NCBI RefSeq assembly: GCF_056712565.1
Contig: NZ_CM160072.1
Reading direction: 5' to 3' (one strand)
Length of the DNA: 64,000 nt
This document shows positions 52,791-55,808 of the stretch, piece after piece. The first letter of the stretch is position 1; every line of letters starts with the position of its first letter. The notes beneath the pieces were generated by a model. The model did not search any database. It saw only the letters and a program-made list of their open reading frames with translations, and had not been told where the DNA came from. The position numbers were made by a program, and so were the translations under genes.

Positions 52791-52837
52791 TGTTGTATCC
52801 TGTTTTTAAGTGATGGCGGCAGTATAGCGGCATGGGG

Positions 52838-54154
52838 TCAGGGCTTCAAAGTTTGCCCGTCTGCTGCTGCGTTCCGGCATGATTCATCCGTCACCGGAAT
52901 AATAATGTCGCTGTTATGAATTTCACGGACATTCTCTTCTCTGACGCGTGTTTTCGCCGGGCAGTGGGAGGGCGTAATCCTTACCTCTGTATCAGTCCAG
53001 GTATAAACATTGCGATCGTCATAAGCGAAGCGATCGTTTTTAGTTAGCGGACCGTTAACTGGAATAATTTGCACGCTCTTGCGTGACCGTAATTGGCGGA
53101 TAAAGTAAGCATGTTGTTTGCCGCTATTAAATGAGTCATCAATGACCAGGTCTGGCGTATCCAGCGGGATTATCTCAAGCTGGTCTTCACCAAAAGTCGA
53201 TAATTTTGTTACATACAGTCGATCTTTATACTGCGCAATATTGTCAGTAATCAGATGAAATTGTTCAGGTTCAATACCCGGTAGGTCTATCCACTTGCTC
53301 CACTGACGGTCGGGCGTGAGCTGTTTACGCCAGCGAACGCGACTTTCCCCTACTTCAAAAGAGACGTCATCATCTACGGGTATCGCTTTGCCAGATAATT
53401 GACCAAAGGGATAACGATGCAGACCCTTATTGTCGCGAAAAACCAGCAGTGAATGAGGTATCCAGCGAATTATCTCAAATGAGTCTGCATTCGCCGTAAG
53501 GTGAGCGCCATTTAAATAAATATTCTGCCCACTGCGGATAAGCAGATCATTGGAATACAAATTTCTGTTTACACTCATAAGACGTGGATTAATACCCCAC
53601 CATCTTTTTTCTAATACAGTAACATTACTGCTGCTCCCCTGACGTCGACCGGACAAGTAGAGATTTTTACTATCCACCAGCGTGGTAGAGTTACCTTCGA
53701 TAGCTTTTAGTGTCGCCAGATCAACACGTGACGCGCCGCTATTACTTTCGGTACGCTGTCCGTCAAAATAGAGGCTATATTTATCGACCGCGAAGCGGCC
53801 CATAGCCTGAAAGCTGGCAATATCGACAGTGGGTGTTCCCGGTGGATTGCTAACGATTTTGCCACGCCAGAGAATAACGTGGCCGTCTGTCACCCAGTGA
53901 TATTCCTCATTTTCTATGCTTATTTCATCGGAAGGTATATAACCCGTCTTCCCAGAGATATTTTTCACAAGGCGCAAATCGGCCCTGTTCATCTCCGGAA
54001 ATTGGGCAATGATTTTCTTATCCCCCCAATAACCTTTACCGTAAGACATGACACTGTGATCATTGTAATAGTCGAACCCTATGGCCTGTACAGGAGGTGT
54101 CAGAAATGTGTTCCCCAACAGGATGAGTGCAACTGTGATTATTTGACCATTCAT
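52838..54154 (-). CDS. secreted DKNYY-type repeat protein, paralogue 1 (function unknown)
   Basis: 438-aa ORF with N-terminal signal-peptide-like segment (IITVALILLGNTFLTPPVQA); repeated D-K-aromatic motifs (DKYSLYFDG, SKNLYLSG, NIYLNGAHL...ADSFEII) typical of the DKNYY family; ATGA overlap with the upstream paralogue. Confidence 0.7.
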   Translation of the reverse strand: MNGQIITVALILLGNTFLTPPVQAIGFDYYNDHSVMSYGKGYWGDKKIIAQFPEMNRADLRLVKNISGKTGYIPSDEISIENEEYHWVTDGHVILWRGKIVSNPPGTPTVDIASFQAMGRFAVDKYSLYFDGQRTESNSGASRVDLATLKAIEGNSTTLVDSKNLYLSGRRQGSSSNVTVLEKRWWGINPRLMSVNRNLYSNDLLIRSGQNIYLNGAHLTANADSFEIIRWIPHSLLVFRDNKGLHRYPFGQLSGKAIPVDDDVSFEVGESRVRWRKQLTPDRQWSKWIDLPGIEPEQFHLITDNIAQYKDRLYVTKLSTFGEDQLEIIPLDTPDLVIDDSFNSGKQHAYFIRQLRSRKSVQIIPVNGPLTKNDRFAYDDRNVYTWTDTEVRITPSHCPAKTRVREENVREIHNSDIIIPVTDESCRNAAADGQTLKP

Positions 54155-55650
54155 TTTGTTGCCTCATTGCGTGGGGCAGGAATAAATTCGCCGTCATCGG
54201 TAATTTTTCCGTCCAGATATCCCGTTTTGTAATTTACGCCATAGCCATATCCCGAATGTTGTTCCTTCCAGATTAAGCGAACTTGTTTCGGATCAGCGGT
54301 GCGGTATCGCCAGAGCTGCGCGCCATCAAAGCTGTAAACGTAGCGGTTATCGCGGGCATACCATCTGCGCAAAAAGGGATGGTCATTAAGATGGGCTTCG
54401 CGTTCATCCGGAGAGCGGTTATCCAGTAAGATCAGCGGTCCGTCAGATTCAAACACGTGTAAACTGGAATGGTTTACCCACCCTTCGGCACGCGTAAGTA
54501 AATAGCCGTGGCGTTTCCCGGCGTTGAAACGTTTGTTGATAATAAGATTGGGGTCATCGAGTTTTACGATCTCCAACTTGCGGTCACCAGACTCTGTTTC
54601 GATGATGGTATAAAGCGAATCCTGATACTGGGCGACAGCATCACTGATGGGGTGGAACTGTTCAGGATCGAGTCCGGATAATTCTTCCTGTTTACAAGCA
54701 GGCCCTTTACGCCAGAACACTTTCTTTTCCTGCAGAGAAAAATCCAGACAGTGCTTTGTTAAATCTTCATCCCACGCCAGATTTTCCTTGTCGAGGACTT
54801 TACGCTACAGCCCGTTTTTATCACGCCAGGTGAAGAGTGAGCCGGGCATCCAGCGCACGACGGAAAAGGTGTCCGGGTCGGCATCCAGTTGTTCTCCGTT
54901 GATCATGATTTTCGTCTGTGTGCGGGCTAGCGTATCCCAGGGGCCAAATGGGGCAGGAAGGCAGGGATTAAATGCTGTAGAGAATTTACCGCGCTGATCC
55001 CATGACTTTTGAGCCAGTACCGTAAAGGTGTCGGGATCATCAAGGCGCTGACCATTTGCGTAAAGATAGTGCTTGTCACGGAGAATCAAACCTAGCCAGT
55101 CTGGTTTCCATTGCGGGTTAAATTCTACCTGACGCAACGTTCGGCGGTTTAGTTGCTGGTTGCTATCGGTGCGTTTGCCTTCGTAATAGAGGCTGTACTT
55201 ATCTGCGGCAAAATCACCCCATGCCTGAAATGACGAGATATCGACTGGCGGTGTGCCTGGAGGGTTTTGCACAATCTCGCCAGCGTAGAGAATAGCGCGA
55301 CCATCGCTATAGTAAGAGTAATGGGGAAGAGTTGCGTTTGCGCCGCTGTAGACAACGTCTGTCATGAGATTGGTAGCCGGGGGCACCGTTTCCCAATCCT
55401 CCAGTTTGGTTGGGTCAATTAGCAAATTCGGTAACAGACGCAGACGCTTGTAGTTAATCTGCGGTAGCGAAAGATTGGTCTTTTCATAAGGGCGCAAATA
55501 CACCACGCCTTTTCCCTGTTTCTGGTAAATATTATGTTCCGGCTCATCAAGCCGACATCCCCATGCCGACGATAAAAACAACGAACAAGACAATAAACAA
55601 ACCACATTGCGATAGTGCATAAAGCCATCCTGGCGCGAGGTGCCGATCAC
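54151..55650 (-). pseudogene. secreted DKNYY-type repeat protein, paralogue 2, interrupted by one in-frame TAG (track ORFs 54805..55650 and 54151..54720)
   Basis: Both track ORFs share one frame; 281-aa part has signal peptide plus NPPGTPPVDISSFQA and DKYSLYYEG blocks (homologous to paralogue 1 N-half); 189-aa part aligns to paralogue 1 C-half (PEQFH...AQY.D.LY). The 28 sense codons after the TAG also align to paralogue 1. Confidence 0.65.
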
Positions 55651-55808
55651 GAAACTACCAGCAAAACATAAATCCCCACGTGTAAGCGTTATACTCGCAG
55701 CATTTCCTCACTTTTCAGACTTCATAAAGAGTCGCTAAACGCTTGCTTTTACGCCTTCTCCTGCGATGATAGAAAGCAGAAAGCGATGAACTTTACAGGC
55801 AATCCATA

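Follow-up and report, generated by a model that had tools for sequence, protein, structure and literature searches.

Two probably exported beta-repeat proteins are encoded at an ancestral, often lost locus between cyaY and lptM of Escherichia coli

Introduction

When the same chromosomal interval is long in one strain of Escherichia coli and short in another, have genes arrived or have they left? The interval between cyaY and lptM (yifL) raises this question in a 64,000-nucleotide stretch of contig NZ_CM160072.1 (RefSeq assembly GCF_056712565.1), here called the window, to which E. coli ATCC 11775 is 100% identical. In the window the interval (52791-55808) holds two co-directional open reading frames (ORFs), ORF1 and ORF2, for related DKNYY-like proteins; in a K-12-like genome it measures 462 bp, in line with the layout of a few hundred base pairs that an initial annotation of the window had given for K-12. 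That annotation, made from the sequence alone, read the additional DNA as an accessory segment inserted into a housekeeping neighbourhood. The evidence given below speaks for departure instead. The two genes and the segment at issue are:

52838-54154, minus strand: ORF1, intact gene for a predicted exported beta-repeat protein of 438 aa (WP_001014285.1), the reference for what we call ORF1-type proteins and putatively the soluble periplasmic form
54151-55620, minus strand: ORF2, pseudogene of a 489-aa ORF2-type protein, a probable lipoprotein, with one nonsense codon
52915-55463, either strand: deletion-equivalent segment, the 2,549 bp that BLAST against the window finds missing from the K-12-like genome (L002), a sequence type 131 (ST131) genome (L038) and strain 123 (L039)

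Results

A common deletion scar in genomes without the segment

Within its 462 bp, the K-12-like genome carries a 179-bp pseudogene that RefSeq names 'DKNYY family protein'. The junction there, between window positions 52914 and 55464, is identical in the ST131 genome (phylogroup B2) and in strain 123, which is from cattle. What remains of ORF1 in all three scars is its last 77 nt, and of ORF2 about 157 nt at the 5' end, so that these seemingly 'empty' sites hold truncated ends of both genes and none of them is an intact empty site. Recurrent deletion by way of repeats was considered and rejected, since microhomology at the junction amounts to no more than about 2 nt and a single old deletion is the simpler account. 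When the scars (L002:1292-1753 and L038:1092-1560) were compared with window positions 52791-52914 and 55464-55808, that of ST131 proved 98-99% identical to B2 alleles and the window, and that of K-12 about 91% identical in the ORF2 remnant. Divergent scars that share one junction imply either later recombination of the flanks after an old deletion or a long co-segregation of presence and absence alleles. The retained tail of ORF1 contains a promoter-like element of cyaY (described below), which may explain where the deletion stops.

The family keeps its place beside lptM-dapF across genera

Genes of the family adjoin lptM-dapF in at least eight enterobacterial genera, as follows:

Citrobacter sp. 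FP75: family genes of 490 and 435 aa, with cyaY on the far side
Salmonella enterica: a family gene of 670 aa, with cyaY on the far side
Klebsiella spallanzanii: four tandem genes of 495, 425, 439 and 463 aa, followed by other genes and not by cyaY
Escherichia sp. MOD1-EC7003 and E. albertii: family genes, with cyaY on the far side
Pseudocitrobacter vendiensis, Phytobacter diazotrophicus and Atlantibacter hermannii: family genes, with cyaY on the far side
Kosakonia: a remnant only, with cyaY on the far side

The orthologues of ORF1 have 60% identity in Citrobacter and 48% in K. spallanzanii, and a check of outgroup sites found the family genes of the outgroup genera at lptM-dapF, not solely elsewhere. 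Because synteny extends across genera and the common deletion scar keeps both gene ends, we conclude that the segment was lost and not inserted: it is ancestral, resident, vertically inherited and dispensable. That K-12 itself descends from a carrier of this ancestral locus and has undergone the deletion we consider very probable. The insertion proposed initially is not borne out, given synteny in at least eight genera, the shared junction and the retained end fragments.

The same annotation had seen no transposase, integrase or tRNA at the borders, and this observation holds up: the ORF list and the Rfam, tRNA and repeat scans of the cyaY-lptM interval gave no tRNA, no Rfam match, no notable or flanking repeats, no insertion sequence (IS) and no transposase or integrase ORF. 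A search of the plasmid database PLSDB yielded no genuine full or near-identical copy, its nearest results being weak partial matches in two Salmonella plasmids (17% of the query, E ~1e-4). Three PLSDB records that do carry the locus (H166-H168, 1.0-4.9 Mb) are evidently chromosomes filed as plasmids. A search of a phage collection likewise gave no genuine phage copy; what it returned was one Salmonella genome contig and two short records without annotation.

In a neighbour-joining tree, the ORF1-type clade joins E. coli, the 436-aa protein of strain EC-1639, the 435-aa protein of Citrobacter and the 425-aa protein of K. spallanzanii; the ORF2-type clade joins E. coli, the 490-aa protein of Citrobacter, the protein of Salmonella and the 495-aa protein of K. 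spallanzanii. Separate clades that each span three genera place the duplication before these genera: ORF1 and ORF2 parted before the split of Escherichia, Citrobacter and Klebsiella. The locus was originally a tandem array of two to four paralogues, from which different lineages lost different members.

Family genes occur at some other places as well. E. albertii and E. whittamii (L028, L029, L032) have a second paralogue pair at another housekeeping site, cycA-ytfE, and Leminorella-like genomes (L013, L022) have a pair between hda and arsC. A 4-kb contig of a metagenome-assembled genome of 'Collinsella sp.' (L017, JAIJJM010000270.1) carries a DUF3304 gene, ORF2 and ORF1 at 88-99% amino acid identity to E. 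coli; it is almost certainly a mis-binned E. coli contig.

States of the locus in E. coli and selection on its genes

Population counts were drawn from 5,426 complete E. coli genomes. The interior of the segment was matched in 1,578 of them, leaving about 3,848 (about 71%), K-12-like ones included, without an interior match. What the initial annotation called an accessory segment is indeed variable, but it is accessory merely in being often lost, not in having been acquired. At least five states of the locus were seen:

Scar only (K-12-like, ST131): the genomes without an interior match; the K-12-type junction is covered to 80% or more in 2,485
ORF2 and ORF1 (the ATCC 11775 window, L037): counted jointly with the next state
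DUF3304, ORF2 and ORF1 (L003, L035, L036): pair interior covered to 80% or more in 1,394 genomes, both two-gene states together
DUF3304 and one 685-aa gene (L034, L041): 166 genomes
Three genes of 480, 436 and 675 aa (EC-1639, L040): 125 genomes

The 685-aa gene encodes a full ORF2-type protein with an additional ORF1-like C-terminal module, and genes of 670-685 aa with this composition are also found in Salmonella, E. albertii, Pseudocitrobacter and Phytobacter (fusion genes at L006:8001-10013, L034:3326-5383 and L040:3839-5866, and in L024, L023 and L025). They suggest a modular architecture, A-B or A-B-B', and a possible interaction of the two protein types; being natural fusions in which an ORF1-type C-terminal module is joined to an ORF2-type protein, they may be taken as weak 'Rosetta-stone' support for physical association.

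Alleles of the segment are more divergent than the flanking genes, and ORF2 falls into two deep allele classes within E. coli, with a synonymous divergence (dS) of about 0.4-0.5. Pairwise ratios of nonsynonymous to synonymous divergence (dN/dS) were as follows:

ORF1, within E. coli: 0.25-0.52
ORF1, against the Citrobacter or EC-1639 type: 0.13-0.27
ORF2, all pairs: 0.09-0.22
cyaY and dapF, all pairs: 0.00-0.13

These values, along with the Shine-Dalgarno sequences and the ATGA overlap described below, indicate that ORF1 and ORF2 are real protein-coding genes under relaxed purifying selection. Pairwise dN/dS of ORF1 and ORF2 (0.09-0.52) gave no sign of gene-wide diversifying selection. The pair had been described at first as duplicated and diversifying: the genes are tandem paralogues, but the duplication is not recent, since it predates the genera in the tree, and the dN/dS values do not bear out diversification.

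The interruption of ORF2 in the window is a single codon:

54805-54807, minus strand: premature TAG in place of Gln272 (CAG to TAG), which inactivates ORF2 in this lineage

Intact alleles have CAG (Gln272) at this position, and intact copies of 489 aa are present in L003 (strain ES2) and L037. Of 1,332 genomes with a match to a 61-mer around the TAG, 80 have it exactly, among them S88, APEC O1 and EV36. Since it occurs in these 80 genomes only, all of a single lineage, the TAG allele is a recent, lineage-specific inactivation. Intact ORF2-ORF1 pairs are present in Nissle 1917 and 83972.

Organization of the cyaY-lptM interval

The genes and sites that border the pair are:

49884-52430, plus strand: cyaA, whose listed ORF starts with TTG, in agreement with the UUG initiation codon known for cyaA
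52470-52790, minus strand: cyaY, from the ORF list and the RefSeq annotation
52821-52849, minus strand: putative sigma-70-like promoter of cyaY (TTGAAG, 17 nt, TATACT), a consensus scan match that overlaps the ORF1 stop codon
55621-55808, either strand: divergent intergenic region between ORF2 and lptM, its lptM-proximal half strongly conserved across genera in an eight-locus alignment
55809-56012, plus strand: lptM (yifL), with dapF next

Two co-directional minus-strand paralogues with export signals had been claimed from the outset, with cyaY about 47 bp downstream in the same orientation, and both claims were confirmed, the latter from the ORF list (ORF1-cyaY gap, 47 bp). An intact ORF2 allele shares 37% identity with ORF1 across 324 aa (E 1e-60), which is far above chance; the export signals were judged by inspection (below). 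By translation ORF2 is a single reading frame, which spans 489 codons if the ATG at 55620 is the start and 499 if a GTG at 55650 is. RefSeq lists it as a pseudogene, 'DKNYY family protein, internal stop', and the product of ORF1 as 'hypothetical protein'.

The start of ORF1 and the stop of ORF2 overlap by 4 nt as ATGA, with GAGG 8 nt upstream, an arrangement that points to translational coupling of ORF1 to ORF2; the premature TAG lies 654 nt upstream of the ORF1 start that would be coupled. The ATG of ORF2 is preceded by AGGA at a distance of 7 nt. No terminator-like site was found in the gap between ORF1 and cyaY, and the cyaY promoter-like element is also present in the K-12 scar. Upstream of ORF2, the consensus scan called no promoter, and alignment of this region across genera showed no recognisable regulator site, only the lptM-proximal conserved block. 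That block (...CTTTCTATCATCGCAGGAGAAG.CGTAAAAGCAAGCGTTTAG...) is near-invariant from Escherichia to Atlantibacter and is kept in the K-12 scar; presumably it is the promoter or leader of lptM-dapF.

Capture of a DUF3304 gene beside ORF2

About 1,100 E. coli genomes have, between ORF2 and lptM, an orphan gene of the DUF3304 (Tli1-like) family that is absent from the window. The relevant features are:

L003:4496-5050: orphan DUF3304 gene, 184 aa, with an N-terminal transmembrane helix; its insertion point is equivalent to about window 55561-55729
55561-55729, either strand: 5' end of ORF2 and its upstream region, single-copy in the window and duplicated as a 169-nt repeat in many other E. coli

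DUF3304 proteins are immunity proteins against the effector Tle1 (PMC13133936). The orphan is 92% identical to a copy that stands beside a Tle1-like effector gene and a DUF4123 adaptor gene in a type VI secretion system (T6SS) cluster, T6SS-1 (L010). In L003 it is flanked by a direct repeat of 169 nt (spacing 1,081 nt, 89% identity), which duplicates the ORF2 upstream region and the first 20 codons; of its 169 positions, window 55561-55729 shares 165 with the lptM-proximal copy and 149 with the distal one. The orphan gene was inserted later, as a copy from the T6SS-1 cluster, and it sits behind a copied ORF2 5' upstream region, presumably the site of the ORF2 promoter. Its presence shows that the cyaY-lptM site can host envelope-protective genes; it is no proof that ORF1 and ORF2 are of that kind.

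Gene neighbourhoods of the family were inspected at about 20 loci, the cycA-ytfE and hda-arsC sites among them, and consist of housekeeping genes, with one near-toxin case, that of Limnobaculum. There, in Limnobaculum allomyrinae (L016/L031), an Rhs toxin gene that has orphan tips and immunity-like small ORFs is found 1-4 kb away from the distant homologue P0063, which also adjoins prophage genes.

Export signals and cysteines

Signal sequences of ORF1, ORF2 and their relatives were judged by inspection:

54083-54154, minus strand: ORF1 signal peptide of the signal-peptidase-I type, residues 1-24, MNGQIITVALILLGNTFLTPPVQA followed by IG
55555-55620, minus strand: ORF2 signal sequence, MHYRNVVCLLSCSLFLSSAWG followed by Cys22, ending ...AWG-C

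In the N-terminus of ORF1 an n-region and a hydrophobic core lead to a cleavage site ...PPVQA-IG, that is, both a signal and an AxA-type site as expected of a Sec-exported protein. Equivalent signals are seen in every ORF1-type relative: a hydrophobic N-terminus ending in AxA, QA or HA, with no Cys. In an AlphaFold2 (AF2) model of ORF1, residues 1-22 have a predicted local distance difference test score (pLDDT) below 50. For ORF2-type relatives, a Cys directly after the hydrophobic core was found in 17 of 17. Among the 36 family members examined, two N-terminal classes recur, one with the post-core Cys (AWGC, ALAC, AQAC, STAC) and one with AxA-type sites and no Cys; the motifs ALAC, AQAC and STAC of the relatives fit the PROSITE PS51257 lipobox rule. 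Cysteine pairs are conserved, internally in ORF2 (C291/C309) and C-terminally in ORF1 (C398/C426), and would fit an oxidising compartment. We regard export of both protein types as quite probable. The E. coli ORF2-type protein is probably lipidated, to judge by its N-terminus, and for ORF2-type proteins as a whole a lipid anchor is somewhat favoured.

A divergent, borderline branch of the DKNYY family

The internal motifs had been likened to the Pfam DKNYY family (PF13644), and this relation stands at the level of the family but not as a clear match of the window proteins. PF13644 is matched at E of 0.001 or less by 14 of 36 relatives (alignment A1; best 4.5e-22), but ORF1 gives only sub-threshold values (E 0.014 and 0.065), and the intact ORF2 of strain ES2 (L003), used as stand-in for the interrupted copy of the window, gives E 0.37. 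A motif scan found several tandem DKNYY-type motifs (DKYSLYFDG, DSKNLYLSG, GQNIYLNG...ADSFEII and similar), and the distant members P0060, P0067, P0070 and P0079 bear canonical DKNYY repeats as C-terminal extensions. The locus proteins appear to be a divergent Enterobacterales branch of the DKNYY family, with borderline membership; RefSeq and UniProt already give them the DKNYY label. The subfamily is small, with 67 clusters at 50% identity among 1.84 billion representatives, and all of its named sources are Enterobacterales. A protein of 6,096 aa with seven matched stretches (P0100) was rejected as an unrelated, low-complexity repetitive protein.

The AF2 model of ORF1, made from a 36-sequence alignment, is all-beta (pLDDT 84, predicted TM-score (pTM) 0.74), and no solved structure resembles it. 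NCBIfam and PADLOC scans gave no match for ORF1 or ORF2. Because the invariant residues across the family are those of the repeat scaffold, and conservation analysis of the family found no catalytic-looking constellation of conserved residues, we lean towards a reading of ORF1- and ORF2-type proteins as non-enzymatic binding scaffolds.

Discussion

The best overall explanation, for which we have a modest preference, is that of a resident and decaying locus for a dispensable pair of envelope binding proteins, one anchored and one soluble, with a conditional protective role. ORF2 and ORF1 would be expressed from a promoter divergent from lptM, with their translation coupled. ORF2-type proteins would be exported and anchored through the conserved post-signal Cys, probably as lipoproteins, and ORF1-type proteins would be freed into the periplasm after cleavage by signal peptidase I. 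In the cell envelope both would act as non-enzymatic binding scaffolds, for which repeat-scaffold residues and Cys pairs would be all that is conserved. The favoured role would be protection, through the binding of external factors that act on the envelope; the repeated loss of the locus would be explained because such protection is useful in some niches only. The protective role taken alone is a tentative proposal that we hold to be doubtful, its only hint, a weakly supported one, being the capture of DUF3304 at the locus.

A number of points weigh against this explanation. The Trp at position -2 of AWG-C falls outside the PROSITE PS51257 lipobox rule and makes the site atypical, and this Cys may simply follow a signal-peptidase-I site. 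At 440-490 aa, ORF1- and ORF2-type proteins are much larger than typical immunity proteins. At the approximately 20 loci examined, no family gene adjoins a partner gene for a toxin, a secretion system or an enzyme. Frequent loss, together with dN/dS above that of the neighbouring genes, would also fit a gene of marginal value. An AF2 run on ORF2 and ORF1 joined by a linker, with a shallow alignment of seven natural pairs, gave no confident complex (pLDDT 62, pTM 0.48). Our literature search found no publication on these genes or on the function of DKNYY proteins; 'PF13644' occurred nowhere and 'DKNYY' once, in a gene table, where the DKNYY gene stands beside an LPXTG surface-protein gene in Parvimonas.

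Other explanations have to be considered for both the origin of the locus and its role. If this housekeeping neighbourhood had received a horizontally acquired accessory segment, whose two secreted-protein genes stemmed from a recent duplication and were diversifying, one would understand why about 71% of the complete E. coli genomes are without the segment, why its GC content is 45-50% against 51-57% in the flanks, and why its alleles diverge more than the flanking genes. Such an acquisition is very improbable to us, however, and is largely refuted by the scar, which keeps both ends of the gene pair in K-12-like genomes, and by the cross-genus synteny, with the family beside lptM-dapF in at least eight genera and mostly between lptM and cyaY; the scans for tRNA, integrase, IS and flanking repeats were negative, no genuine plasmid or phage record has a full or near-identical copy, the split of the paralogues is older than the genera, and dN/dS is below 1. 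A relic is another reading: in ATCC 11775, with ORF2 dead, an ORF1 dependent on ORF2 translation would be silent and drifting. The nonsense codon upstream of the coupled start, the loss of the locus from most of the species and the many Shigella and E. coli database entries that are fragments all agree with this, yet ORF1 is intact and has its own GAGG ribosome-binding site, selection on both genes is purifying, within E. coli as well as from genus to genus, and the restriction of the TAG allele to 80 genomes of one lineage makes it recent; we rate a non-functional relic as improbable.

With respect to role, ORF1 and ORF2 might be cognate or orphan immunity proteins against periplasm-acting toxins of T6SS, contact-dependent inhibition (CDI) or bacteriocin systems, and their site an orphan-immunity island. 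The periplasmic or anchored topology, the tandem paralogues with patchy loss, the capture of an orphan from the Tle1 immunity family behind a duplicated ORF2 5' upstream region and the one distant homologue near an Rhs orphan array would suit this idea, which we nonetheless find unlikely: 0 of about 20 loci have an effector adjoining a family member, NCBIfam and PADLOC give no immunity-family match, the size is unusual for immunity proteins, and the family has been conserved at a fixed housekeeping site throughout its history, unlike mobile effector-immunity cassettes. A little less probable still are adhesin-like proteins of the surface or envelope, or decoys, for host, glycan or phage ligands, with losses in lineages to which the ligand does not matter or the protein does harm. 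Surface exposure is without support, ORF1-type proteins have no anchor, dN/dS below 1 overall speaks against diversification of the antigenic type, and no chaperone-usher or autotransporter partner is present; these points are set against a beta-repeat architecture typical of binding modules, the canonical C-terminal DKNYY repeats that distant relatives add, the Parvimonas gene next to an LPXTG gene, and the listing of K-12 yzcX, the scar of the locus, among membrane-protein genes. The preferred explanation, an envelope binding-protein pair, also has a bolder form: the anchored ORF2-type and soluble ORF1-type proteins might make up a module for envelope protection in Enterobacteriaceae that has so far gone unrecognised, an 'innate' shield fixed in the chromosome and independent of effectors, which would catch incoming lytic enzymes or toxins that act in the periplasm, with its promoter region repeatedly co-opted for captured orphan immunity genes such as tli1. 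We think this an outside chance. If it were true, presence or absence of the module would shape the competitiveness of E. coli at the strain level.

More generally, if the proteins protect the envelope, the polymorphism of the locus would matter for competition among gut strains; if not, it is a case of ordinary gene decay. Natural knock-outs are at hand for tests of function, namely the deletion in about 71% of genomes and the nonsense allele in 80 genomes, including S88 and APEC O1 of the ST95 type, with intact pairs in Nissle 1917 and 83972 on the other side.

Comparison with known systems

The nearest known counterpart is E. coli K-12 yzcX, the 'DKNYY family protein' pseudogene, which is the same locus: its remnant is the ORF2 5' end joined to the last 77 nt of ORF1. 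The window differs in keeping the full 2.5 kb, with one gene intact and the other carrying a nonsense codon. In the literature yzcX was found in gene lists only. The cyaY-lptM spacer of K-12 and its yzcX 'gene' can now be reassigned as the scar of an ancestral multi-gene array, a correction of use for annotation and pangenome work.

Tli1 and other DUF3304 proteins are located in the envelope, as predicted for the ORF1/ORF2 family, and about 1,100 other E. coli genomes have a gene for one at this locus; in sequence and fold, the DUF3304 proteins are unrelated to ORF1 and ORF2. PliC and MliC are paired periplasmic inhibitors, one soluble and one a lipoprotein. The ORF1/ORF2 family would likewise comprise a soluble form released by signal peptidase I and a Cys-anchored form; this is an analogy only, since PliC/MliC show no homology to the family, which is not known to have a target. 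Periplasmic beta-propeller scaffolds such as TolB and those like BamB are also among the closest known systems. From the Pfam DKNYY family (PF13644) the window proteins differ by a degenerate core of about 400 aa and by a distinct C-terminal module (PEQFH...AQYQDRLY...), and together with their relatives they define a compact, Enterobacterales-specific DKNYY subfamily with a clear organisation in two forms, one predicted to be anchored and the other soluble.

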